Source: a virus (Duplodnaviria; Heunggongvirae; Uroviricota; Caudoviricetes). From it: a DNA stretch of 45,246 bases. Under the pieces are notes generated by a model. It was given only the letters and a program-made list of their open reading frames with translations, was not told where the DNA came from and made no database searches. Of this stretch, positions 14,621 through 34,807 are shown in pieces (position 1 is the stretch's first letter; each line of letters starts with the position of its first letter). The DNA lies in IMG/VR virus record IMGVR_UViG_2778261297_000003, one strand, 5' to 3'. Made by a program: the position numbers and the translations under genes.

Positions 14621-15001
14621 TTACCCTGTCGTAACTGAAACTGATGGCTGAGAAGCAAGAACTCGCTTACGAAGCACATCAACATCAGCAATAACGCCGG
14701 ACTGCAGAAGACGCTCAGCATCTTTGCCGGTTACAGGGATGCGCATATTTTCGCGGTACATCTCCCCGTCATGACGAATGCAATTCCCTTTCAACACCAC
14801 ATACTCCTGCGATTCAGTGTCTCCGGATTTTTCGTCACCACCATCGTCATCAACAGACAATTCGGCATCATCTGTTTTGCTCAAAGGCTGTTTTTCCTGG
14901 GTGTTATCGCCAGCATTCAGGTCGTCAACGCTCAGGCCGTCTTTGGCAGATCCTTCTGCATTCAGATCATCAGCCAGCCCGGTATTAGGTTGTTTTGCCA
15001 T
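14621..15001 (-). CDS. acidic head protein in FI position (putative DNA packaging / head completion)
   Basis: ATG at 14999-15001 overlaps the capsid gene stop; GGTGG RBS; acidic N-terminal half. Confidence 0.35.
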   Translation of the reverse strand: MAKQPNTGLADDLNAEGSAKDGLSVDDLNAGDNTQEKQPLSKTDDAELSVDDDGGDEKSGDTESQEYVVLKGNCIRHDGEMYRENMRIPVTGKDAERLLQSGVIADVDVLRKRVLASQPSVSVTTG

Positions 15002-15002
15002 A

Positions 15003-16052
15003 TCAGACCACCGTTGCGCAGAGGGATGCATTTACCCGGCTCGGAATAACCAGCGGGGAGGATTGCATCAGGATAAGACGCTGGGCTGGATCTTCTTTCA
15101 CCCAGGATTTTGGCGCATAAGCCAGCGGACCGTAGTTGAAAGCCGGGTCCAGGATAACGCCAAATGCGCGGGTACCCATCAGATCGGCACCACTCATAAT
15201 GACAGCGCCATCGGGGATCATAGGCTTCTCGACGTTGTCCAGCGGGTCAATAAACCAGTCGTTATATAACCAGAGGTCAAAGTTACCCCAGCGCCCTTTA
15301 TAAATTGCGCCCTTCATTACCTGTGGGCCGGCGTTAATCTGGTTACCAAACGGGCTCAGCGCCGGGAATGTAATGGCGTTATCCTTGATGGTGGTATCCA
15401 GTCGGAATGCACGCCATGACTTATTCGTAAAGACCAGATCCGTGGCGACAGAGCCGGACTCTTTCAGGAAAGTAGTCTGCCAGATTTCAATGTCATCTGA
15501 TGGCTGGGTATTGGTAGCGCCAGCTGCAACGGTCAGTGGCCATTTATCCGAGCCGCTAAGAGTGATGGTCAGATCCGAAGCACGCCCGAAATCCACCACC
15601 TGAGTTTCATAGCCCTCCCCGGCGACGGTTACGGTCCCAGACACCAGCGCACTCGCCGCCATCCATTCCAGACGACGGTTGATCATGTCAATCTGGTCAG
15701 TCATTTCAAACTGAAGGTTCAGCATTTCGCGCTCGGCAGCGGTATATTCCCCGCCAATACGCTCACCAATCTGGCGGCGGATAGGTTTGCGCAGGTCCGG
15801 CGCGCGCTTATCTTTGATGTATGCCGGTTTGAAGGTATTGGTCTGGTATTTACGGGATTCGACCAGCTTACCTTCCACCAGCGGGGAGACGAACGGCGCC
15901 ATACGACGCAGGCCGACATCAACATCAATCGCCACTTCTTCAGTCTCGTAAGTCACGACATTCGGGAAGAAGCGATCGAGCAGCCAGTTCTGACTGGTTT
16001 TCAGGTTAGGAACAACCTGCACCAGCACGCTGGTATCAAAAATATTTTCCAT
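15003..16052 (-). CDS. major capsid protein (lambda E-like)
   Basis: 349 aa from MENIFDTSVL; overall resemblance to lambda gpE and position after the D-like gene. Confidence 0.85.
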   Translation of the reverse strand: MENIFDTSVLVQVVPNLKTSQNWLLDRFFPNVVTYETEEVAIDVDVGLRRMAPFVSPLVEGKLVESRKYQTNTFKPAYIKDKRAPDLRKPIRRQIGERIGGEYTAAEREMLNLQFEMTDQIDMINRRLEWMAASALVSGTVTVAGEGYETQVVDFGRASDLTITLSGSDKWPLTVAAGATNTQPSDDIEIWQTTFLKESGSVATDLVFTNKSWRAFRLDTTIKDNAITFPALSPFGNQINAGPQVMKGAIYKGRWGNFDLWLYNDWFIDPLDNVEKPMIPDGAVIMSGADLMGTRAFGVILDPAFNYGPLAYAPKSWVKEDPAQRLILMQSSPLVIPSRVNASLCATVV

Positions 16053-16149: not shown

Positions 16150-16554
16150 TCAGGAGGTGGTTACAGGTGCCTGGTCACTGTCTTTCAGGAAGATAGCCAG
16201 CGGTCGGAGCGCTTTTTTCAGGTCAGCGGTCGTCCAGGAGTTATCAAAAATAATTCGGTGCTGGTTGAATTCCCCCATCAGATACAGGCCGCCGTTCTGA
16301 TCGGAAGACGATGCATCAACATCATCAACCAGAATAGCAACGGGTAACTGACTGCCATCTTCAGCCGTTTTCACACATTGCGTGTATTTCCCGCTGGCAG
16401 CCACCAGGCCCAGGACAGTACCACGCTTAAAGGCACCGCCCGTAATGATCCCGGTGTCAGTCACCAGCTGGAGCGTGCCAGCGACAAGCTGATCCGGAAC
16501 AAACAGCGCGCTCTTCATGCCAGGCGCAAACGCATTCTGACCAAACTGATCCAT
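16150..16554 (-). CDS. head decoration protein (D-like)
   Basis: 134-aa ORF between scaffold and major capsid genes. Confidence 0.7.
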   Translation of the reverse strand: MDQFGQNAFAPGMKSALFVPDQLVAGTLQLVTDTGIITGGAFKRGTVLGLVAASGKYTQCVKTAEDGSQLPVAILVDDVDASSSDQNGGLYLMGEFNQHRIIFDNSWTTADLKKALRPLAIFLKDSDQAPVTTS

Positions 16555-17144
16555 TATTTCTCTCCTCTTGTGGAGTTGTAGAGGCCGGTCATTTTACTTA
16601 CCAGCGCAGACTTTCCGGTCTCTTTCTGTCCGCTATCCGGATTAAGCCGGACCTGGTGGCTTTCCTGCATACGCTGATCGAGAGAGCGTTTACGGGATGG
16701 CTGAGATGCGGCTGCGGCCGGAGCCGAAGAGGCTAGGACATTAATTGCTGCCGCAGAACTCATCCCGGTATTGAAAGCCAGTGACGCGGCCAGTGAAGGA
16801 TTCGCAGCTGCATGCTTACTGCCGAAAATACGGGCGCAGCGTTTACGCTCAGCAGCGCGTGCATTTTTTACCGCCTTACTCTCTTTGCGATCGTCGTCGC
16901 CGTCGTCTTCAGAATCATCATCTTCTGACGCATCCGGATCATCGCCGTCATCTTCAGCATCATCGTCGCGTTCGTCTTCTTCCGCGTCGTCGTCGCGCTC
17001 ATCATCATCGGCATCATCTTCGCGCTCGTCCTTTTCCGCGCGACGGGCTTTCGCTTTTTTGGCTTTTTTATCCTCTTCTTCCTCAGAAGCGGAAGGGCCA
17101 AGACCAATGAGGTGAGCAAAACTAAACGTCTTTTTCTTTGCCAT
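16554..17144 (-). CDS. head scaffolding protein with acidic repeat region
   Basis: Starts MAKKKTFSFAHL immediately after the protease stop; long D/E-rich repetitive stretch; lambda Nu3-like position. Confidence 0.6.
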   Translation of the reverse strand: MAKKKTFSFAHLIGLGPSASEEEEDKKAKKAKARRAEKDEREDDADDDERDDDAEEDERDDDAEDDGDDPDASEDDDSEDDGDDDRKESKAVKNARAAERKRCARIFGSKHAAANPSLAASLAFNTGMSSAAAINVLASSAPAAAASQPSRKRSLDQRMQESHQVRLNPDSGQKETGKSALVSKMTGLYNSTRGEK

Positions 17145-17145
17145 T

Positions 17146-18012
17146 TCAGGCTCCTGTTTTTTCAAGTAAGTTTTTGAACGCAGCGTCAGGAGGACACACC
17201 TCATCAGCCAGTCCAATTTCAACGCCATCAGCAGCCATAAAACAGGCGGCCTGGGTACTTTTTATAACCTTTGCGCTAATCCCCCGGTTTCTGGCAACAG
17301 TGTTCACAAACAATTCGCCCATGGTGTTAATGTCCTGCTGGATGGCGGCCAGCGCTTCATCTGACAACTCTCTCAGCGGCGAACCTTCAGCCTTGCGGGA
17401 TCCATAGGTGATGATCGTAACTTTAAGACCGTCATCTTTAATCCGCTGCGTCCAGTCAAGGTGCATGGTGATCACACCCACAGAACCCACTCCGCCGGTG
17501 CGCGGAACAGAAATCCGGTCCGCTGCACTGGCAATGGCATACGCAGCGGAATAAGCGCTTTCCGTCAGAATGGCATGGATAGGCTTTTTCCCCCGGGAGC
17601 CGTAAATGACATCAACCAGATCGAAGCATCCAGCGACCTCGCCGCCGGGTGAGTCGATATCCAGGCAAATTCCCGAAATGTCGGGATCTTCCATCGCAGT
17701 AAGAAACGCCTGACGAATGCCGTCATACCCTGTCATTCCACTGTACGGACGCAGACTGCCCAGTTTTTGCACCAGCGTTCCGCATATCGGGATGACGGCG
17801 ACACCCAGCACATTGTCATAACCCGGATCACTACGGGATTCACGTCCCCGGTTATCGTCATATCCGTACCAGTCATCCTCCATGGCAAGAGAAGATTCGA
17901 TTTTACTGATACCAAATCGGTCCATTACGGATGCCATGATGACTTCGGCTTTACTCGGGTGCAGCGCCAGCGGGGTGTTAAATAATCGCTGGGCCAGATG
18001 GGGTAGATTCAC
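17146..18012 (-). CDS. head maturation protease (S49/ClpP-fold, lambda C-like)
   Basis: 288-aa ORF after portal; SppA/ClpP-like features (..DSPGGEV.., ..SAAYAIASAAD..). Confidence 0.8.
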   Translation of the reverse strand: MNLPHLAQRLFNTPLALHPSKAEVIMASVMDRFGISKIESSLAMEDDWYGYDDNRGRESRSDPGYDNVLGVAVIPICGTLVQKLGSLRPYSGMTGYDGIRQAFLTAMEDPDISGICLDIDSPGGEVAGCFDLVDVIYGSRGKKPIHAILTESAYSAAYAIASAADRISVPRTGGVGSVGVITMHLDWTQRIKDDGLKVTIITYGSRKAEGSPLRELSDEALAAIQQDINTMGELFVNTVARNRGISAKVIKSTQAACFMAADGVEIGLADEVCPPDAAFKNLLEKTGA

Positions 18013-19646
18013 TTTTCCTCCGGTTCGGTAATGGTCTGGCTCGCAAACTGGTCAGCCTGTGCCCAGCTCGGAAGCGGTAATCCGCGTTTAAGACATGACT
18101 CAATTTCTCTCTGGCGCTGATCAAGCACTTCTTCCCAGTCTTCACCGACGTTTTCACCCACCTCAATCTCGAGGGTGGAAAGTCCGGCATCCAGACCAAG
18201 AATGGCGCCTTTTTTCTCTGCAACCGGATCCACCCAGCCGCGCCCTGGCCCCATCCAGCGCGCGCGAGAATACGCGGCTCTGGCGTCAACAAAATCAGGT
18301 GCGCCTGCGGGCAGGGGTAAATCCTCATTGTCGTGAACTTCTTCAACAAAGGCGGTGAGAATGGGCTGAGCGAAGCCGGTAGAAAAATCGTCCCGGCGGC
18401 GAGTCAGTGTTTTCCATGCCTCCAGCAACGAGGAGCGTGCAGAACTGTAGTTAACGTCAGACCAGTCCTGGGTGACCTGCTGTGGGGACAACCCTGTTCC
18501 TGAAGAAAAATTACGGAGAACAGCAGATTCGAAGACTTCAAAATTGCTGTAGGGCCGCGCCGCGTTAACCGTCGTGATTTTCTCACCAGGATAAAGAATG
18601 GGCATTCGGGCACCATTCTGAAGTGTCAGACGCCGATCGTTATGGAACTCAACACGCCCGTCCTGATAAGTGCCTAACTCCGACTCGTCATAGGTCTCGC
18701 CCAGGGCAGACTGAACCATCGCAGGGTCATAGGGTGACTCAATGTAAGCGGCAAATATGGCATTAAGAATTGCTGCCTCAAGCTCACTCTGGTCATACTT
18801 CACCAGCATTTTCAGACGCTGAATAACCGGAGTCAGGATGCCGTTACCGCGGTGCTGCGCGCCACGCTCATGATCAAAATCGTGAACCACATGCGGGCGG
18901 CCCCAGTCAGTTTCACGCGGGATACGCTGCCACGTCATGGTTTTAGCCCCGCTCCACCAGTCACCGATATGGGCCTCCCTGATGTGGTAAGCAACCGGCG
19001 CACCGTCCGCATCAATTTCAACGCCACCACGGACATTTGGCATATCGAAATTCTGCTGAGGATTACTGAGGCGGTCAGGATCGACAATCTGTACCGTGGT
19101 GGCGTAACGCCCTCTTCCGGGACCAAGCCTGTCAGTTCTGTACTGGAGAATGGCCAGAGCATCCCCGTCAATAAGCTTATGACGAAATCCCAGGCGTAAC
19201 ATCTGCGACACGGTGAGTTTTCGTTCAACATCACAATACCGGCCAGGATCGTTACTCCAGGTCCGCCAGTGCCCGTCCAGTGCTTTTCCGTACTCTTCCG
19301 CCCAGGACGCATCAAACGCCTTGTTTCCGGTGATCATTCTGAGAACACGGTAATCGGGTTTCATGATGGGGCGGAAGTTGGCACCAACCGCATTATCCAG
19401 CAGACGTGTGACCGCACCGTTTGCCCAGCCGTCATTACGGACCAGATCGCGTGCGCGGGACACGATGCGATCCCGGTAAATGTTAATTTCATTGTCCGGG
19501 GACCACAGCGCGGGTTGCCAGTTCGCCAGTTGATCGCTGAAAGAGTCAGCTGCGTCATAAGGTACGCGGCTCCCCCCCACCAGCATAGAGGGACGCTGCT
19601 GTCGCAACGGCTGCCCATCAGAGCCCAGTATCTGTACTTTATTCAT
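18009..19646 (-). CDS. portal protein (lambda B-like)
   Basis: 545-aa ORF; start overlaps the W-like gene stop (ATGA). Confidence 0.9.
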   Translation of the reverse strand: MNKVQILGSDGQPLRQQRPSMLVGGSRVPYDAADSFSDQLANWQPALWSPDNEINIYRDRIVSRARDLVRNDGWANGAVTRLLDNAVGANFRPIMKPDYRVLRMITGNKAFDASWAEEYGKALDGHWRTWSNDPGRYCDVERKLTVSQMLRLGFRHKLIDGDALAILQYRTDRLGPGRGRYATTVQIVDPDRLSNPQQNFDMPNVRGGVEIDADGAPVAYHIREAHIGDWWSGAKTMTWQRIPRETDWGRPHVVHDFDHERGAQHRGNGILTPVIQRLKMLVKYDQSELEAAILNAIFAAYIESPYDPAMVQSALGETYDESELGTYQDGRVEFHNDRRLTLQNGARMPILYPGEKITTVNAARPYSNFEVFESAVLRNFSSGTGLSPQQVTQDWSDVNYSSARSSLLEAWKTLTRRRDDFSTGFAQPILTAFVEEVHDNEDLPLPAGAPDFVDARAAYSRARWMGPGRGWVDPVAEKKGAILGLDAGLSTLEIEVGENVGEDWEEVLDQRQREIESCLKRGLPLPSWAQADQFASQTITEPEEK

Positions 19647-19909
19647 CAGAATCTAAACCTCGCTGGTTTCCGGGGACGAGAGATAATCCCCAGTTGCGCC
19701 TGCAGAAGTTGAATCAGGGCCAGCAGATCAGCCAGGGTGCTTTGCTGATAGGACACTGATCGCGTCCCGTCTCCCTGCGTATAGGAAAACGAAACACCGT
19801 GGCTCCCGGTTGCTAAATCAATGTACGCCTGCTGAGCTTTCGCAAGCGCATCCCTGAGCTGATCGTCAGTCATTGCGCCGGCAAGCAGGCTGGTGTTCCG
19901 GTTGAACAT
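19646..19909 (-). CDS. head-tail joining protein W-like
   Basis: 87-aa ORF between terminase large subunit and portal, as in lambda. Confidence 0.65.
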   Translation of the reverse strand: MFNRNTSLLAGAMTDDQLRDALAKAQQAYIDLATGSHGVSFSYTQGDGTRSVSYQQSTLADLLALIQLLQAQLGIISRPRKPARFRF

Positions 19910-19917
19910 GATTTTCC

Positions 19918-22047
19918 TTATTTCGGCAGGAGTTGCGATATTCGCTTACGTTTGACCGGCGCTGGTTCTTCAATAACCGCACCCGGCAGCTCGTAATTGA
20001 TTTTTTCTTCCTGTCCAACTGGCGCTGGCAGGAACTTATCCGGATCGGCTTCGAGGTTGGCGGCCCGGACGTTGAGTTTTAACCCCATATGTTTGAGACC
20101 GCACAGCGCGGCATAGCTGTAAACGAGGCAGTCAAGCGCTTCGTTAGCTCGTCCTGGTATTGCTTCCCAGATACTGTACCGCTGCCCGGAAATGACTTTG
20201 TAAACCAGTCGCTCCGCCAGCAGCTGATTGAAGTACCCGAGATCGCGATCGTCAGGAAAATGCATATAACCCGCAGCGGCGGCGCCAGGTTTGGGTGGCT
20301 CAAGATGCAGGCGACCGCGTATCACGTCTTTCGCTGAGTTAACCCCCAGAATGACAGGGCGGAAACTGGCTTTGCTTTTCGATGATGGTCGTTTGGTCGG
20401 CCAGACAGGATTGCGTTTACCTCCCTGTGCAGACTCCCCCTTAATTGCCCAGACACGACGGCCAAGACGCTCTTTGGCGAATTCGTATACCTTCTGCGTA
20501 TGGTGGCCACCGGAGTCCATGCACGTTGCCATGATATTCAGGCCGCGCCCGTCACCACGTCGCCAGATCTGTTTCAGGTATGCATCCAGTCGCTTCCAGG
20601 GTTCTTCCGTCTCAAGGTCACCATAAATAACGTCATGCGCGACCGACCACGATTCTTCATCTCTCCCCCAGCCGGTGATCGTAATTTCGAAGCGATCGTC
20701 CTGGGTATCAACTCCAGCTGTTAACAATGCCACCCCGTCCGGAACGACGGCCGGAAATATTTCCCGGCGCGCCAGCAGAACATCAACAGGGAGCTGTTTC
20801 CCATGATTAGGTCGGTGCGGAAGCCCCATCTGGGTATTCCACCACGCCTGTTCCTTATCCGGATCGCCCTTCGCATCGATATATTTTTTCGCAATATCCG
20901 ACGGCTTATCTTTTTGCCAGGGGCTGAAAAGCTTGGATGCCTGGTACCCCGCGTGGTGGTTATCGACTGCCTCCTTTCCACAGGAGGGGCAGATTGCGCG
21001 ATAGACCGCATGCCGTTCCGACTCTGACCATTGCCAGACCTTTTCAACGCTGCCCTCGTCTGCCGCCCGCCAGGCAAGGTCATAATCCATCAGCGGTGAG
21101 TGCCGCTCCCCGCAGCACTCAAATGGGCGCGTCTGATGCCATCGAATAGTGTGCAGAGCTCTGAGGCGCTGTCCTTCGGACCAGCCACTACCACAGCATT
21201 CGCAATAGAGCATCGCCGATTTAGTCAGGTGTTTATCTCCCTCTTTCGGCCACTGAACGTGTTTGAAAAAGTCGGGGAACTGGCGGTGGCCACAGTGCGG
21301 GCAAACCACAGATGCCCGGCGCTGATCGGAGTCGGCGTAGCTGTCAGCAATGCGGCTCTCATCCTCCACCGTCGGCGAACAGGCGCGTACAGACAGCCAG
21401 GTCAGGCCAAATGTCGCTGTACGCTCTTCGGCCAGCGCAATTGGATCGCCTTCGCGGGTTATCGGGTACTTGTCCACTTCATCCGCCAGCAGGACACGAA
21501 TCGGACGACGCGCAAGGTTATCAGGGCTACCAGCACCCGCCAGCGCCAGAAATCCGCCAGTGAATGCCTTGTAAAGAATGGTTTCTTTCGAGCTTTTCTG
21601 TTTCGAATCACCGATGATTTTACGCAGTACCGGCGTCACCCTTACCAGCGGGCTAATACGCTCTTTCGAAAACTGTTCAGCGGCTTCTTCTTTCGGCTGC
21701 AGCAGCAGTATCGGACAAGGATCGAGGTGGGCAAAATAGCCAAAAAGGTTTTCCAGCAGTGCTGTCTTCATCAACTGGGTACAGCACATTACAGTGATGA
21801 TATGAACCCCGGACTCCGTCGCGGCAAGCATCGGTCCGCGGGCAATTTCTACCGTCGATGTTTCCCAGTTTCCCGAAGTGCTCCCAGCCTCTTTTGCCAG
21901 CTTACGATAGTCATCTGCCCACTGCGGCACACTGATACGCGGCGGGGGTGTCCAGCCTTTGCGGACGCTTAATTCAAGACGCTCAATCTTCTGCCGGGTT
22001 AAACTCTGGCTCTCCGAGGACTGAGATGTGTTTGTGGACATGTTCAA
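19918..22047 (-). CDS. terminase large subunit (lambda gpA family)
   Basis: 709-aa ORF with ATPase region (..ILLLQPKEEAAEQFSKERI.., ..RVLLADEVDKYP..) and multiple Cys clusters as in gpA-type terminases. Confidence 0.9.
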   Translation of the reverse strand: MNMSTNTSQSSESQSLTRQKIERLELSVRKGWTPPPRISVPQWADDYRKLAKEAGSTSGNWETSTVEIARGPMLAATESGVHIITVMCCTQLMKTALLENLFGYFAHLDPCPILLLQPKEEAAEQFSKERISPLVRVTPVLRKIIGDSKQKSSKETILYKAFTGGFLALAGAGSPDNLARRPIRVLLADEVDKYPITREGDPIALAEERTATFGLTWLSVRACSPTVEDESRIADSYADSDQRRASVVCPHCGHRQFPDFFKHVQWPKEGDKHLTKSAMLYCECCGSGWSEGQRLRALHTIRWHQTRPFECCGERHSPLMDYDLAWRAADEGSVEKVWQWSESERHAVYRAICPSCGKEAVDNHHAGYQASKLFSPWQKDKPSDIAKKYIDAKGDPDKEQAWWNTQMGLPHRPNHGKQLPVDVLLARREIFPAVVPDGVALLTAGVDTQDDRFEITITGWGRDEESWSVAHDVIYGDLETEEPWKRLDAYLKQIWRRGDGRGLNIMATCMDSGGHHTQKVYEFAKERLGRRVWAIKGESAQGGKRNPVWPTKRPSSKSKASFRPVILGVNSAKDVIRGRLHLEPPKPGAAAAGYMHFPDDRDLGYFNQLLAERLVYKVISGQRYSIWEAIPGRANEALDCLVYSYAALCGLKHMGLKLNVRAANLEADPDKFLPAPVGQEEKINYELPGAVIEEPAPVKRKRISQLLPK

Positions 22048-25311: not shown

Positions 25312-26364
25312 TTATTCCCCTGTTAACGCCCTTATTTCCCCCACCGTCTGGCTAAACCTGTCCTTCTCGAGTTCAACGCCGATAGCCTGGCGGCCAAGTT
25401 CCAGCGCGATTTTCACGGTCGAACCGGACCCCATAAAGAAATCAGCCACCACATCACCAGGCTTACTGCTGGCGTTGATGATCTGCCGCAACATGTCAGC
25501 GGGTTTTTCGCATGGGTGTTTACCTGGGTAAAACTGAACGGGTTTATGTGTCCAGACGTCGGTATAAGGAACGGATACGGAAACAGAGAAATGCCGCCGA
25601 AGCGATTTGTACTCTTCGAGCAGCTCTGAATACTTGCGATTTAACGAATGCCACATAGCCACCAGCTGGTGGTGTGGTGTTGCCAGTTCGCCGTTCTGGT
25701 GCTTTTCGATGGCTACCTGCGTGAAAAGGGACTGAAGCTTCCGGTAGTCTGATTCATTCGGTAATTGCCACTGGCTACCGCTGAACCAGTGAGACACCAT
25801 GTTCTTCTTTCCAGTCGCATCGGCTATTTGTTTTGAGGTTATGCCAAGCGCTTCACGTGCATCCCGGAAATAAGAAATTAGGGGAGTCATTACATGCTGC
25901 TTCAGCTCGCTTCCCTTCTCAGCGTACCCGTCGCTCTTTGGTTTATACGGCCCCTGGTAATGCTCAGCGAACAGGATGCGCTCTGTTGCAGGGAAGTAAG
26001 AGCGCAGGCTCTCTTTATTACAGCCATTCCAGCGGCCCGACGGTTTAGCCCAGATGATGTGGTTCAGGACGTTGAACCGCTCACGCATCATGATCTCAAT
26101 GTCTGCCGCCAGACGGTGACCTGAGAAAAGATAAAGACTGCCGGCAGGTTTAAGCACTCGCCAGAATTGTGCGAGGCACATATCAAGCCAGCGAAGATAA
26201 TCCTCATCCCCTTTCCATTGATTGTCCCAGCCGTTGGGTTTCACTTTGAAGTACGGCGGATCCGTGACTATCAGGTCAATGAAGTTATCAGGGAGAGTTG
26301 CGATGTATTGCAGGCTATCAGCGTTGACTAACTCAACACTGTTTATATTTACAGTATTTTTCAT
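25312..26364 (-). CDS. DNA methyltransferase, beta-class (N6-adenine or N4-cytosine; DPPY motif)
   Basis: 350 aa; motif IV VTDPPY near the N-terminus and motif I FFMGSGST near the C-terminus. Confidence 0.8.
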   Translation of the reverse strand: MKNTVNINSVELVNADSLQYIATLPDNFIDLIVTDPPYFKVKPNGWDNQWKGDEDYLRWLDMCLAQFWRVLKPAGSLYLFSGHRLAADIEIMMRERFNVLNHIIWAKPSGRWNGCNKESLRSYFPATERILFAEHYQGPYKPKSDGYAEKGSELKQHVMTPLISYFRDAREALGITSKQIADATGKKNMVSHWFSGSQWQLPNESDYRKLQSLFTQVAIEKHQNGELATPHHQLVAMWHSLNRKYSELLEEYKSLRRHFSVSVSVPYTDVWTHKPVQFYPGKHPCEKPADMLRQIINASSKPGDVVADFFMGSGSTVKIALELGRQAIGVELEKDRFSQTVGEIRALTGE

Positions 26365-26582: not shown

Positions 26583-27482
26583 TTACGCGTTTCCAGGAGG
26601 GACATGCCAGACTCTTCGGCCATCCTCATGGTTCTCGATAATCTTGGCTGCTGTACTGCCACCAAAAGTGTGCATATAGCTATGATGTATCGTTAACACA
26701 ATATCTTGTAATGCCTGATCTGCTTCCATCGGTATGATTTTCAAACCAATTTGGCTAGCTTTATCACTGTGAATATGACGTGCATGAGCAAAAGTTGAAC
26801 TGTGGTTATTCAGGCTTGAACAAATAGCTTCAGCCTTTTGCTGGGCATCTGGATCCCCATCAAACATACCAGTAATTAGCCATTCACTGACAATTGTTGT
26901 TGCCCATTGGATTGCCTTTTCACACTCACCAATGAACGTCGGATTGAGTTTAGACAGTGTAAATTGCCAATACGCAGCAGTCGCAGGGTTTTTAATAATA
27001 TCTTGCATAGCCTTCTGCGCTTCTTCAATCACGCCATGTGCTGGCACGCCACCGATTTGGGGATCGAAAGGACCGATATTTGATTGTTTCCCCATGATGA
27101 TTTCTTTTGCACAACAAGCCAACATAGTCCCTGCTGACATAGATATCATGGGGACAAAAGCACGGATATCGTTACCGAACTTAGCTCTCAAGTAATAACC
27201 TATCGATTCTAAGGCGGCGATATCCCCACCAGGTGTATGCAAAATGAGATCAAGCCCCTTCGTGGCATCGAGCCCATGAACCGCTGTCATGAATCCATTT
27301 TTATCATCATCAGACATAGTGCATAAATGCGAGCTATTCTGAAGGAACCCCGAGTAGTACGCAATGACGTTACGTCCGGTCATCTGCGACATCTCTTTGA
27401 TATATTTGCTTCTTACTGTGTCTAGGGGGCTTTTTTGGGCGAGGACTGCAACCTCGCCCATAACATGATTCCAATTAGGCAT
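26583..27482 (-). CDS. Clp/crotonase-fold serine protease (S49/SDH-like), accessory
   Basis: 299 aa; ..LILHTPGGDIAALESIGYYL.. and ..ISMSAGTMLACCAKEIIMG.. resemble ClpP/SppA-fold serine peptidases; family assignment from memory. Confidence 0.55.
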   Translation of the reverse strand: MPNWNHVMGEVAVLAQKSPLDTVRSKYIKEMSQMTGRNVIAYYSGFLQNSSHLCTMSDDDKNGFMTAVHGLDATKGLDLILHTPGGDIAALESIGYYLRAKFGNDIRAFVPMISMSAGTMLACCAKEIIMGKQSNIGPFDPQIGGVPAHGVIEEAQKAMQDIIKNPATAAYWQFTLSKLNPTFIGECEKAIQWATTIVSEWLITGMFDGDPDAQQKAEAICSSLNNHSSTFAHARHIHSDKASQIGLKIIPMEADQALQDIVLTIHHSYMHTFGGSTAAKIIENHEDGRRVWHVPPGNA

Positions 27483-30613: not shown

Positions 30614-32551
30614 TCAGGCGGCTGCACCCGCCTTTTGATTTGCACATAATTCAGGAAGATTTGCTTCTACCAGCGCACGAGCGAACGGCGGCGGTACTGC
30701 GTTACCACAGCGCGCTACCTGCTTGTCTTTGGCGTAACGATTGCCGCGATAGTCCTGATCGATAACGTAGCCGTCAGGGAAGCCCTGCGCCTTATAAAGC
30801 TCATGCGGTTGCAGCATGCGCATTCCGATATCGACGATCTGGTACTTAACCCCCTCGATCGTCACCAGCCATTCATCCTCGCTATCACCGCAGTAGGTTT
30901 CGAGGAATGTCCGGACCTCGCCAACGTGCTGGCCACCAGCGGTAATCGTCGGCATAGGTGTATCCATGGTCTGACCGTCGCTGCAGGTTCCGCGCAGCTT
31001 CACCAGGTGCGACGCAACTACCGCGTGGTGATCAACAGTAGTGACTGAGTGGGCAGGCTCATCCATACCAACACCCGGCCCCGTGTAATTCCCACCATAG
31101 TGCTTCGCCAGGAACGCGCTCACCGTTGCAAACTTATTACCACCAGCAGTGACCGTGCCGAGCGGGTTATTCAGTTGAAGAACACGCGGTTCTTGCCCTG
31201 GGCGTTCGCCGTACCCCATCTGGATCAGTGTTGGAGTTACCAGCTGCGACTTACCGCCACCACCTGCAGTAATCGTCGCACTCGGTTCGTCAGCCCTGTG
31301 CCCAACACTGGCTCCAAACTGGCGGGCGATGACCGGCGCAACCACGCACGCGCGGGACTGCTTGAGGATTGTATGAGCGGGTTTATCCAGCGGGCGCGGC
31401 TTTGCCTGGTACTCACTGCCGCCATTGCCAGCCAGGAACGGTGTCAGGGCGGCCTCAACTACGCCAAGCGCATGCCCATTCCCGCCCGGGCGCGCCGACG
31501 TACCAGCGGTGACAGTTGGTACCGGCTCGGTCACTGGCTGCCCGGTGGCCCCGGTGCGGAATTTAGTAAGATGCGGTACCGCCAGTGCGTAGCCATGCTT
31601 TTTAGTGATGGTCTGCAATGGCTCTAACAACGATTGCCCGCGGAAACAGTCATAACCTCCTTTCGTCGTGGTGTGGTTACACTTCACGATGAAAGGTGAT
31701 GCGCTTTCGATAACAAAGCGCTGGATGCCGCGCGCGATACGTTTGAGCGTATTTTCCGCCAGCGGCTTTTTGCGGTCGAAGATGGACCGGGCCGGGATAT
31801 TCCAGTCAATGCACTCCGCCGCGGTACGCCATGGCGCCAGCTTGCCGCTTTGTACTTCCAGTGATTTTGGATCCCCATGAGTCGCTTCAGGCCAATGAAT
31901 CTTGCGGCCGTCACAGCGCATGACCATGAAGAAACGCTTTCTGATCGTCGGCGCGCCGTAGTCACATGCGCGCAGCTCCCGATAATCAACCTCATAACCA
32001 AGCCCGGCGATCAGCTGTTGCGCCTGCTGGCCGTGCGGCTCAATGGCAAGGAATTCACAAACCTCAGCCAGCGCAGGGTGATTCGCCGCGATCCCCGTCG
32101 ACAGCATGCCGACAAATGCCTCGAATGTTTCGCCAGCACGCTCAGGATCTGGGCGTAATTCTTCATCCAGCAGCGGGCCCCATGTCTTAAACTCTTCGAC
32201 GTTCTCCAGCATCATGACGCGGGGACGTACTGCCAGCGCCCAGCGCAGGACAATCCACGCCAGCCCGCGAATCTCTTTCTTAACCGGCTTAGCGCCCTTC
32301 GCCTTGGAAAAGTGGCGGCAGTCAGGGCTAAACCAGGCCAGACCGACAGGTTTACCGCTGGTGGCTGCGCTTGGGTCAACGTCAAACACCGACTCGCAAT
32401 AATGCAGCGTGTCAGGGTGATTCGTCTTATGCATCGCAATAGCGTTTTCGTCGTGGTTGATAGCGATATCCACGCTACGCCCGATCGCCAGTTCAATGCC
32501 GGTACTCGCGCCGCCGCCACCAGCAAAGTTATCAACGATAATTTCACGCAT
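30614..32551 (-). CDS. DNA (cytosine-5)-methyltransferase, large, with repeated TRD-like modules
   Basis: About 645 aa from MREIIVDNFAGGGGAS (motif I); SPDC..FS.AKG (motif IV-like), MLENV (motif VI), RKRFFMV (motif VIII), CGNAV (motif X); four TxTAGG-containing repeats between motifs VIII and X. Confidence 0.8.
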   Translation of the reverse strand: MREIIVDNFAGGGGASTGIELAIGRSVDIAINHDENAIAMHKTNHPDTLHYCESVFDVDPSAATSGKPVGLAWFSPDCRHFSKAKGAKPVKKEIRGLAWIVLRWALAVRPRVMMLENVEEFKTWGPLLDEELRPDPERAGETFEAFVGMLSTGIAANHPALAEVCEFLAIEPHGQQAQQLIAGLGYEVDYRELRACDYGAPTIRKRFFMVMRCDGRKIHWPEATHGDPKSLEVQSGKLAPWRTAAECIDWNIPARSIFDRKKPLAENTLKRIARGIQRFVIESASPFIVKCNHTTTKGGYDCFRGQSLLEPLQTITKKHGYALAVPHLTKFRTGATGQPVTEPVPTVTAGTSARPGGNGHALGVVEAALTPFLAGNGGSEYQAKPRPLDKPAHTILKQSRACVVAPVIARQFGASVGHRADEPSATITAGGGGKSQLVTPTLIQMGYGERPGQEPRVLQLNNPLGTVTAGGNKFATVSAFLAKHYGGNYTGPGVGMDEPAHSVTTVDHHAVVASHLVKLRGTCSDGQTMDTPMPTITAGGQHVGEVRTFLETYCGDSEDEWLVTIEGVKYQIVDIGMRMLQPHELYKAQGFPDGYVIDQDYRGNRYAKDKQVARCGNAVPPPFARALVEANLPELCANQKAGAAA

Positions 32552-33878
32552 TGACGGCCCCCTGCATGCTGTTGAAGAGACCACCAGCGGTCGTGATAAT
32601 TTCACTCGTCGGCATACGTTCGAGCCACAGCTGGTTGATATTGGCTTTCAGCTTGTTCTGCTGCGAAACAGGTAGAGCGTCAGCCCCTTCAATCTGGTTA
32701 AACACCAGTCCAACCTCAAGAGGCCAAACGCGCGATTCGTTTAACGCCTTGTCCTTTGATTCCTGCGTCTCACGGACATGGGCGCGGATCCCCCGAATAT
32801 TTGACCATTTGGCTTTATCCAGGCTTTCCATGGTCGCGATGAATTCACTGTGGTTAATGCCGTATTCTTTCGCAGACTCAACGGCAACCGTGCGTAACCG
32901 CTCTGACATGTCTTGTTTCACGTCATCGCTATCAAAGGGCAATGTTTCCAGCCATGCATTAACACCCACCAGGATGCTCTCGCTGATCAGCTTTTTCGCT
33001 CTGTCGATCGTCAGCGGTGAAACATTGGTAAATTCAGGGTTTTCCAGAGAGTCGGCAGCCCAGGTATGACCAAACTTTGACTCGCTGAAGGTGTACTCGT
33101 CTTTCTTGCCGAACGCCGCGACAACACAGGCCCAAGCCTCTACACCGCTGGTTTCCAGAATGGCTTTTTGGGTTAATGGCAGTTCTGCCTCTGATTTCTC
33201 CGGCACTACCTCAGCGTCCAGCTCCGGCGCCGCATCAGTTTGCGTTCTTCCCACGGCAAATTGGGCCAGCGACATCGCAGCACGGCCTTTGGCCTCCAGG
33301 TCGGTGCGGTTGATGTAACTGAAACGCTCACCCCGCCATGTTTTGTCGAAGACCACGATAGCGCCAGCAAAAAATGCGCTGGTGGGCTGCTGCTTTTCGT
33401 CTTTCGGCACGAACCATGTAGGAAGATCGAAACCAATTCGGCCACGGATGAATGTGACGTGATCTGCCTCTTCCGGCCACCACGTCTCACTCGTCGCAGA
33501 CTTAATGAGAAAAACGTACCGTCCACCCTTTTCTCGCATTGCCATAGCGTGGTTAATGATGTGGGTCATTCCGGTAACGGCCTGCTTGTCGTGGTACTGA
33601 GAGCGGCTGTAAGGCGGGTTGCCAAACCCGGCACCACCGAGTTCTGCCAGACGCTCTGACCAATCCTGCGTCAGGGCATTATTTTCAGCCGTGTACCAGG
33701 TTGGGCACTTCGCGTTGCTGTCGTCGGCAAAAAGGTCCAACACCAGAGGGCCGAACATCGCATTGATACCCCAAAACAACAGATCCGGAGTGCGCCATTG
33801 ATCGCCGACCTCTTTCAACTCATGGGCTGGTTTTGAACGCAGTTCAGCCAGCGCGCGGCAGTATTTGCTTTCAATCAT
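32544..33878 (-). CDS. phage Dam-type N6-adenine methyltransferase (NPPY) fused to a 270-aa C-terminal domain of unknown function
   Basis: N-terminal region WRTPDLLF...GFGNPPYS matches phage Dam family; C-terminal extension has no recognised motifs. Confidence 0.7.
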   Translation of the reverse strand: MIESKYCRALAELRSKPAHELKEVGDQWRTPDLLFWGINAMFGPLVLDLFADDSNAKCPTWYTAENNALTQDWSERLAELGGAGFGNPPYSRSQYHDKQAVTGMTHIINHAMAMREKGGRYVFLIKSATSETWWPEEADHVTFIRGRIGFDLPTWFVPKDEKQQPTSAFFAGAIVVFDKTWRGERFSYINRTDLEAKGRAAMSLAQFAVGRTQTDAAPELDAEVVPEKSEAELPLTQKAILETSGVEAWACVVAAFGKKDEYTFSESKFGHTWAADSLENPEFTNVSPLTIDRAKKLISESILVGVNAWLETLPFDSDDVKQDMSERLRTVAVESAKEYGINHSEFIATMESLDKAKWSNIRGIRAHVRETQESKDKALNESRVWPLEVGLVFNQIEGADALPVSQQNKLKANINQLWLERMPTSEIITTAGGLFNSMQGAVNA

Positions 33879-34807
33879 CCTCTGAACCCCTCTGGAATTT
33901 TGGTATCTACCGGGCCGAACTTCATCGGGTCATGTTTCTTCTCGCCCCAGCTTTCACGCGGGGGACGGCCTTTCTTATCCCAGCGGATCCCGCTTTGCAG
34001 ATAACCCTCAAATTTTTTCGGCCCAAACAGAGTTTCAGGCCGCATGTACTGATACTGCGCGTCATTGCCGTTCCAGTGTTCATGCTTAAGGTCAATCACC
34101 AGCGTCAAGTCGCTGACGGTATAACCTTCACGCAGACGGGCACGTATGTTTTCCAGAGAGGTTTTAGATTTCTGGTACCGTGAGCCGCTAACCTGGTTCA
34201 AATGAGTTAAAACCAGGATGGCGTTATCAGTGATCAACACTTCAGGGTCTGGTTGCGGCGCAACCGGACAAGAGGGGTTAATGATCTGTTTGTGATGATC
34301 TGAGTAATGATCTGTATAGAGAATAGGTTCCGCGACTTCGCGGTTAGGGTTCTGCGGTTCTGCGTTTTCGGTTCCGTGATTTTGCGGAATAGGTTCCGCG
34401 ACTTCGCGTTTCCCGTTCCGCGATTCTGCGGAATCCAGTGTTACAGGGAATAAAACGTTAATTAGCGCTTCGCCGTTAATGCGGTAATGCGTTTTTTTTG
34501 TACCATTTACCTGGCGCTGGGTCTTTTGAACTACGTCAGGAAGCCAACGAGTGCAAATCTTGTTTACAAGGCGCTGTACCTGATCTTCACTTACTCCTCG
34601 AATCTCAGCGGCAAGCTCACTGTGTTCTTTGTAGAACCAGCCATCATTCAAGTCGGATTTACCTGACCAGAACACAAGTTGGTTTAGAACAGCACCTAAG
34701 GCGTGCGCCTGCTGGTCACCTGAGAAAAAATCGAGGTAAGGCACCGGAATGGTAATGCAGTTCCGTTGTCCCGATAGCGATTGAACGATTTCAAATATCT
34801 GGCTCAT
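33875..34807 (-). CDS. replication initiator (lambda O-like architecture, iterons within the gene)
   Basis: 310 aa; internal repeated peptide REVAEPIPQN...REVAEPIL is encoded by DNA iterons, as in lambda O; C-terminal region resembles the conserved phage replication C-terminus. Confidence 0.55.
   Translation of the reverse strand: MSQIFEIVQSLSGQRNCITIPVPYLDFFSGDQQAHALGAVLNQLVFWSGKSDLNDGWFYKEHSELAAEIRGVSEDQVQRLVNKICTRWLPDVVQKTQRQVNGTKKTHYRINGEALINVLFPVTLDSAESRNGKREVAEPIPQNHGTENAEPQNPNREVAEPILYTDHYSDHHKQIINPSCPVAPQPDPEVLITDNAILVLTHLNQVSGSRYQKSKTSLENIRARLREGYTVSDLTLVIDLKHEHWNGNDAQYQYMRPETLFGPKKFEGYLQSGIRWDKKGRPPRESWGEKKHDPMKFGPVDTKIPEGFRG
34281..34430. repeat. iteron array / candidate origin of replication
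   Basis: Three direct ATGATCTG repeats (each with a GATC) at 34281-34314, and 21-bp direct repeats AATAGGTTCCGCGACTTCGCG at 34322-34342 and 34388-34408 plus degenerate GGTTCCGCGA/TTCTGCGG units. Confidence 0.5.

Follow-up and report, generated by a model that had tools for sequence, protein, structure and literature searches.

The closest described counterparts of the locus examined here are the scaffolding protein Nu3 of phage lambda and gp8 of phage P22, the latter a functional analogue and not a relative. Nu3 is initiated at an internal start inside gene C and has its C-terminus in common with the protease; Nu3-Nu3, Nu3-E, Nu3-B and C-Nu3 interactions have been catalogued (PMC3224144). In the P22 scaffold the N-terminus is acidic and disordered, is flexible in procapsids and is needed for scaffold exit, and the C-terminus is basic and binds coat protein; the acidic end is also required for complete DNA packaging (bioRxiv 10.1101/539965). 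P22 lacks a maturation protease, its scaffold is recycled, and the acidic segment is not a tandem repeat. The gene described here is best read, and probably correctly so, as encoding a stand-alone scaffolding protein of the Nu3 type with a P22-like acidic arm.

The window (the whole stretch of viral DNA that was analyzed, 45,246 nucleotides) carries a lambda-type head module on its minus strand, with contractile-tail genes downstream (Table 1). Since an integrase, a CI-like repressor and CII are also encoded, the window represents a temperate prophage. The scaffold ORF is placed as Nu3 is in lambda, between the portal and S49 protease genes on one side and gpD and gpE on the other, and resembles Nu3 in length (196 vs. 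201 aa), pI (4.75 vs. 4.53) and net charge (-14 vs. -10). However, the gpC/Nu3 unit of lambda is split at this locus: the protease ends before the Nu3 domain, and the scaffold has a gene of its own. The order TerL-gpW-portal-S49-X-gpD-gpE was kept in relatives at 43% and 36% identity, and in the latter the head order was the same even though the tail module differed. RefSeq and GenBank both annotate the ORF as a "hypothetical protein", and the function of its family, phrog_6382, is given as unknown. Of 5,426 complete E. coli genomes, 34 carry the identical gene, each time as a "hypothetical protein". The only cultured phages with the gene are Citrobacter phiNP (phiNP_023) and Serratia vB_SspM_BZS1 (p06), where it is likewise "hypothetical". 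These two phrog_6382 members match the locus described here in gene order, carry a tract of the same kind, do not differ in kind from the protein described here, and have entries without functional annotation; no mention of the scaffold protein was found in the Citrobacter phiNP paper. An IMG/VR scan with one family member (P0217) as query found no relatives, and tRNA and Rfam scans of the window were both empty.

Table 1. Features of the head module and scaffold gene, with deletion variants of the acidic tract found in relatives (coordinates are those of the window)
Feature	Position	Strand	Remarks
Large terminase	19918-22047	-	
gpW	19646-19909	-	
Lambda-family portal	18009-19646	-	
S49 prohead protease, gpC-like, without Nu3 extension	17146..18012	-	288 aa; stop TGA 17146-17148
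Shine-Dalgarno AGGAG	17151..17155	-	6 nt upstream of ATG, within protease gene 3' end (sequence reading)
Scaffold ORF	16554..17144	-	196 aa; ATG at 17144; phrog_6382 member
N-terminal motif FSFAHLIGLG, aa 7-16	17097..17126	-	consensus xFAHLLG
Mixed-charge, K-rich segment SEEEEDKKAKKAKARRAE, aa 20-37	17034..17087	-	18 aa in 114/121 close sequences
Acidic tract, aa 38-85	16890..17033	-	part of charged low-complexity spacer, very variable length
Basic helical Nu3-like core, aa 88-166	16647..16883	-	homologous to Nu3 residues 108-183
C-terminal tail, aa 167-196	16557..16646	-	conserved helix, end ...LYNxxxGxK
gpD-like head decoration protein	16150..16554	-	
gpE-like major capsid protein	15003..16052	-	349 aa
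Deletion in L004 / P0009, 178 aa	16971..17024 missing	-	-54 nt (2 x 27)
Deletion in L093 / P0016, 181 aa	16913..16957 missing	-	-45 nt
Deletion in L046			-15 nt; GAAGA repeats at edges; scaffold gene 92.7% identical; 1 IMG/VR contig
Deletion in L092 / P0037, 160 aa			-108 nt; short microhomology; tract nearly gone

Other genes of the window were noted in passing. The ORF directly after the capsid gene (14624-15031, minus strand; phrog_24496, unknown function) likely has its true start at M11, next to the capsid stop; from that residue it is 126 aa long, which matches the annotation of a RefSeq relative. This ORF is likewise acidic, D-rich and of low complexity in its N-terminal half, and a Pfam search with it gave no match. 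Three DNA methyltransferase genes, all on the minus strand, encode an N6_N4 type enzyme (25315-26364), a 663-aa C5-cytosine type enzyme (30617-32605) and a 444-aa protein with an N-terminal Dam domain (32547-33878), and are presumably anti-restriction cargo. A second ClpP-like (SDH-type) serine protease ORF of 299 aa is located outside the head module (26586-27482, minus strand).

Only a 1-nt spacer separates the protease TGA from the scaffold ATG, and the scaffold gene lies in the +1 frame. A programmed frameshift joining protease and scaffold was considered. There is no slippery site, the spacer is 1, 2 or 25 nt among relatives, and the frame relation is not conserved; the differing frames and variable spacer rule such a frameshift out. 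The single apparent protease-scaffold "fusion" (P0002, 306 aa), from a Logan contig of 1.2 kb, probably reflects a frameshift introduced by sequencing.

The assignment of the ORF to the Nu3 type derives from several profile comparisons. The ORF matched phrog_6382 with an E-value of 8.6e-77, and residues 101-192 of lambda Nu3 matched the same profile (E 3.8e-4); both proteins also matched phrog_17040 over equivalent regions (~1e-11). The ORF's match to phrog_53, "head maturation protease", was confined to profile positions 300-463, which lie on the C-terminal side of the protease portion; the neighboring protease covered positions 6-290 and lambda gpC positions 1-442. In an hhalign comparison of a 40-sequence family alignment with Nu3, residues 88-166 of the ORF aligned to Nu3 residues 108-183 (probability 81.5%, E 1.2e-5). 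Because pairwise BLASTP matched Nu3 weakly (E 0.06; 30% over 69 aa), it is the profiles that carry the homology. When an AF2 model of the core was used in a viral fold search, the top three matches were S49 prohead-protease proteins (probability 0.99-1.00); a fold search with the same model against the PDB found nothing. PDB sequence searches with the single sequence and with a profile found no related solved structure and no scaffold protein, and P22 gp8 showed no detectable sequence similarity to the ORF in these searches. Matches to Pfam Nop14 and CDC45, below the curated cut-offs, and to the PDB entries NOC3, Toc34 and QCR6 were compositional, falling on acidic tracts, and were discarded. 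The sequence-only reading had called this a scaffolding gene, and the homology of the core to Nu3 together with the conserved gene order bears that out. It appears that the gene is in substance of the scaffolding type, and no database names it as such.

We weighed whether the product might instead be an acidic DNA mimic with an anti-defense function, or a head protein that is internal or ejected, and owe its place in the head module to mere location. Highly acidic tracts are known from DNA-mimic proteins, and the fact that its sole Pfam and PDB matches are compositional, and to acidic eukaryotic proteins, would fit such a role. However, the profile and fold links are specific to Nu3 and the C-terminal domain of S49 proteases, the gene sits at exactly the Nu3 position, and the tract is predicted to be disordered and not a folded mimic. 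For Ocr/ArdA-like DNA mimics in particular, the search for family membership in Pfam and the PDB returned compositional matches only, and the predicted disorder of the tract speaks against such membership as well. We regard a non-scaffold role as highly improbable.

A family alignment reaching ~31% identity divided the protein into four parts (Table 1). The N-terminal motif is nearly invariant, with F9, H11, L12 and G14 at least 90% conserved down to ~31% identity, whereas the sequence between this motif and the core turns over. Nu3 has no counterpart of the FAHLLG motif, which could be a point of engagement for the untethered S49 protease or for the portal; candidate partners of the motif are the portal, the protease and the capsid protein. 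The core has the consensus GRxAERxRCAAIF...LAAxLAFNTxMS...RxSLDxRM. In AF2 predictions residues 12-89 had no secondary structure, with most of the tract below a pLDDT of 50 (mean 39-49 per 10-residue block), and the tract is predicted to be disordered; residues 86-140 formed a confident helical bundle in the core model (pLDDT 88-94). The full-length model (pTM 0.27) was too poor for a fold search. Residues 1-87 have a net charge of -25 and a pI of 4.05, residues 88-196 a net charge of +11 and a pI of 10.76, and the scaffold protein is an electrostatic dipole. This distinguishes it from lambda Nu3, in which protease sequence and an S/T/A/Q-rich linker (net -2) take the place of the D/E repeat tract ahead of a core that is mildly acidic, not strongly basic as here (pI 10.8).

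The acidic tract itself spans 144 bp. Of its 48 residues 26 are D and 9 are E, 35 in all, and its net charge is -31. The maximal D/E segment covers aa 39-85 (16890-17030) and is 74% D/E. The tract is built from about five imperfect 9-aa (27-nt) units, which in codon register read KDEREDDAD / DDERDDDAE / EDERDDDAE / DDGDDPDAS / EDDDSEDDG / DDD. At 16946-17030 Tandem Repeats Finder reported an array of 3.1 copies with a period of 27 nt, matching at 77% (score 107). An acidic stretch of this kind is well beyond chance: stop-free 48-aa windows with at least 60% D/E numbered 22 of 90,200 in the six frames of the 45-kb window, and all 22 were at this locus. The sequence-only reading had described an acidic, D/E-rich tract of imperfect repeats, and this description is correct for the minus strand, where the 196-aa translation includes the peptide it quoted (...EDDADDDERDDDAEEDERDDDAEDDGDD...). 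Its span of 190 bp (16870-17060) contains the tract proper but was slightly generous. Long ORFs cross the tract in other frames (16771-17115 and 16781-17110 on the plus strand, 16868-17119 on the minus strand) and are by-products of the GAY/GAR codon periodicity. Matches of the tract by blastn to jumbo Erwinia and Xanthomonas phages and to others reflected low-complexity GAY/GAR sequence only and were dismissed.

Just one further tandem array in the window scored 50 or more. This second array (34326-34434) holds about five copies of a 22-nt unit (GGTTCCGCGAYTTYGCGG...) with a 44-nt super-period, and lies within a 310-aa ORF with a Phg_2220_C domain (33878-34807, minus strand). It looks like a set of replication-origin iterons inside an initiator gene, as in lambda O.

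Separately, Cys recurs inside the acidic tract through Gly/Arg to Cys polymorphisms (DDGDD to DDCDD, ERDDD to ECDDD), in proteins P0004, P0006, P0012 and P0018 and at loci L018-L026 and others. In P0006 a new DDCDDPE repeat has been built within the tract. Cys in an acidic disordered arm was unexpected.

We compared the length of the tract among relatives, as the sequence-only reading had proposed. In a close set made up of the 120 best protein clusters and the query (121 sequences, 60-98% identity), the tract ranged from 12 to 51 aa while the flanks stayed within 1-3 aa; because its length varies, the tract is not invariant in length and composition. The N-terminal segment was 18-19 aa in all but one of the 121 sequences, and the C-terminal part 109-111 aa in 118. 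Closer in, variation was scarce: all 31 near-identical copies from complete E. coli genomes were exactly 591 nt, and the tract had the same length in all but one of the ~40 closest IMG/VR loci. The deletions that were found lay within the tract and between short repeats (Table 1). The -54 nt deletion is edged by direct repeats, CGCGA[A/C]GATGATGC, and its exact breakpoints are ambiguous within the repeat; it was seen on 4 contigs from several sources. The resulting 178-aa form makes up five separate protein clusters from several samples and has therefore persisted and diversified. The -45 nt deletion is edged by the direct repeats GATGAT[G/T]CTGAAGA[T/C]GACGGCGA and was present on 4 contigs, one of them 65 kb at 21x coverage. 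The 160-aa variant was set aside as weak evidence because it is known from a single contig at 0.5x coverage. The reading frame was kept in 79 of 79 IMG/VR loci, and all observed indels were multiples of 3. Arrays of independent origin occupy the same position in other lineages, with a different 27-nt unit (3.2 copies), a 48-nt unit (3.1 copies, 90% match) or a 24-nt unit (2.9 copies).

The indels look like the products of slippage or of recombination between repeats. The earlier expectation that such a tract varies in length by slippage is supported, with a qualification: deletions at direct repeats do occur within the tract, but they are rare, and the tract is not hypervariable. Nor does it behave as a contingency (phase-variable) locus, in that the 27-nt unit matches at 77%, the 31 E. 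coli copies are equal in length, and the frame is always kept. Judged from these alignments, the tract is best described as an ordinary imperfect coding repeat that occasionally loses or gains units. It could not be called generally faster-evolving than its flanks, as this holds only for the near-identical copies and one replacement lineage. In that lineage, represented by E. coli GN05064 (L001:4109-4194) and also by L067, L069 and L071, an E-rich stretch (EEEEEEETAEEEEEETAEEEEEETASEE...) stands in place of the D-rich tract, with 62% nucleotide identity to it, between flanks 89-98% identical to the window. The replacement reflects either a mosaic (recombination) event or rapid local turnover.

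The sequence-only reading had also suggested that the tract may tune capsid assembly. In its explicit form, tract length would act as a ruler or tether that fixes how the N-terminal motif is positioned relative to the shell-bound core, so that gain or loss of repeats tunes procapsid assembly or size. Tract lengths do cluster, at 45-51 aa in 93 of the 121 sequences with a mode of 48 (a close Enterobacterales group). The constant length in the E. coli copies points the same way, as does the observation that over long distances the tract is as conserved in nucleotide sequence as the core (80-88% vs. 74-80% identity). However, tracts 18 or 15 aa shorter are found beside near-unchanged portal, protease and decoration genes. 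In the locus with the -54 nt deletion these genes were 99.8%, 99.7% and 100% identical to the window, respectively, and the capsid gene 92.2%; in that with the -45 nt deletion the values were 99.8%, 99.4% and 100%, with 99.8% for the capsid gene. Capsid gene length shows no matching change (349-350 aa throughout), and the diversification of the 178-aa form into five clusters likewise argues against a ruler. More distantly, the part preceding the core varies over 54-196 aa, with practically no correlation between length and charge (r = -0.17). A length-tuning role is therefore doubtful.

We next considered what is conserved if length is not, using a distant set of 136 clusters from the core-domain family. 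One search for this widespread prophage family gave 585 protein clusters. A second gave 322 at 50% identity, nearly all of them stand-alone proteins of 160-260 aa, and the distant set was drawn from these. The pre-core region had a net charge of -10 or lower in 90% of the 136 clusters (median -18), the core of ~100 aa was at about +8, and the whole protein had a median net charge of -10 (IQR -12 to -8). The charges of the N-region and the core were negatively correlated (rho -0.33 to -0.34): excluding a 15-aa buffer gave a rho of -0.34 (p 4e-5), and 68 disjoint sister-pair contrasts gave -0.33 (p 0.006), with 39 opposite vs. 22 same in a sign test. A first estimate of -0.59 was inflated by naive placement of the domain boundary and was replaced by the controlled value of ~-0.33. 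Charge compensation between the N-region and the core is modest but real. These observations suggest that net charge, and not length or sequence, is the conserved quantity in the acidic arms.

In a few members of the family (P0260, P0236 and P0266) the acidic region is small or missing, and those examined lie in different gene contexts in which the S49 protease does not adjoin. P0260 (L090:4434-4928) follows a gpD-like gene and precedes tail genes, with neither an S49 protease nor gpE nearby, and P0236 (L091:4571-5089) is surrounded by unannotated genes. Both may be part of another head architecture or of satellite-like elements.

The same data bear on whether the tract is neutral low-complexity filler, that is, tolerated repeat DNA encoding a linker that drifts by slippage. 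Natural populations tolerate deletions in it, the 160-aa variant has lost three quarters of it, and some family members do without it. However, that variant is the single low-coverage contig noted above, and every indel is in frame. In addition, 90% of the distant clusters have stayed acidic although the sequence has turned over completely and the repeat units are independent, and this acidity co-varies with the charge of the core. Neutral filler is unlikely, albeit less so than a ruler.

It seems likely, then, that the tract is the disordered acidic arm of a stand-alone Nu3-type scaffold in a temperate E. coli prophage, selected for its charge and aiding scaffold exit. By homology, the core would self-associate and bind the gpE-like capsid protein, as Nu3 does. 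The arm may stay mobile inside the procapsid, as in P22, and would keep the overall charge of the protein negative, at about -10 to -14. By the same analogy, it would help the scaffold or its fragments to detach and leave upon S49 protease action and DNA entry. Selection would act on charge rather than on exact sequence or length, and the tract accordingly evolves, as the comparison of relatives shows, through units that are duplicated or lost at short direct repeats, always in frame. The role of the arm is modeled on P22 because lambda Nu3 has neither the acidic tract nor the basic core; the protein here shares with P22 gp8 an acidic N-terminus, predicted here to be disordered, and a basic C-terminal region.

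A bolder version of the charge-based reading would make arm and basic core a co-evolving electrostatic switch that replaces the covalent coupling of protease and scaffold in lambda, with phrog_6382 as a class of "dipolar" scaffolds. We consider this step improbable. If it were true, self-association would be driven by charge, displacement would come from the incoming DNA, and the acidic arm or the invariant FAHLLG motif could recruit the separate S49 protease into the procapsid. The phrog_6382 proteins would then be a distinct, widespread and unannotated class whose net charge is held homeostatically near -10.

For the understanding of capsid assembly nothing is overturned by these results, which amount to ordinary biology and a small gain in annotation. 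On the preferred reading of a charge-selected acidic arm on a Nu3-type scaffold, the conservation of charge accords with the P22 model. The natural in-frame deletions in closely related phages constitute an allelic series for the function of the acidic arm. Finally, the phrog_6382 family, "hypothetical" everywhere so far, can now be annotated as a stand-alone scaffolding protein of the Nu3 type.
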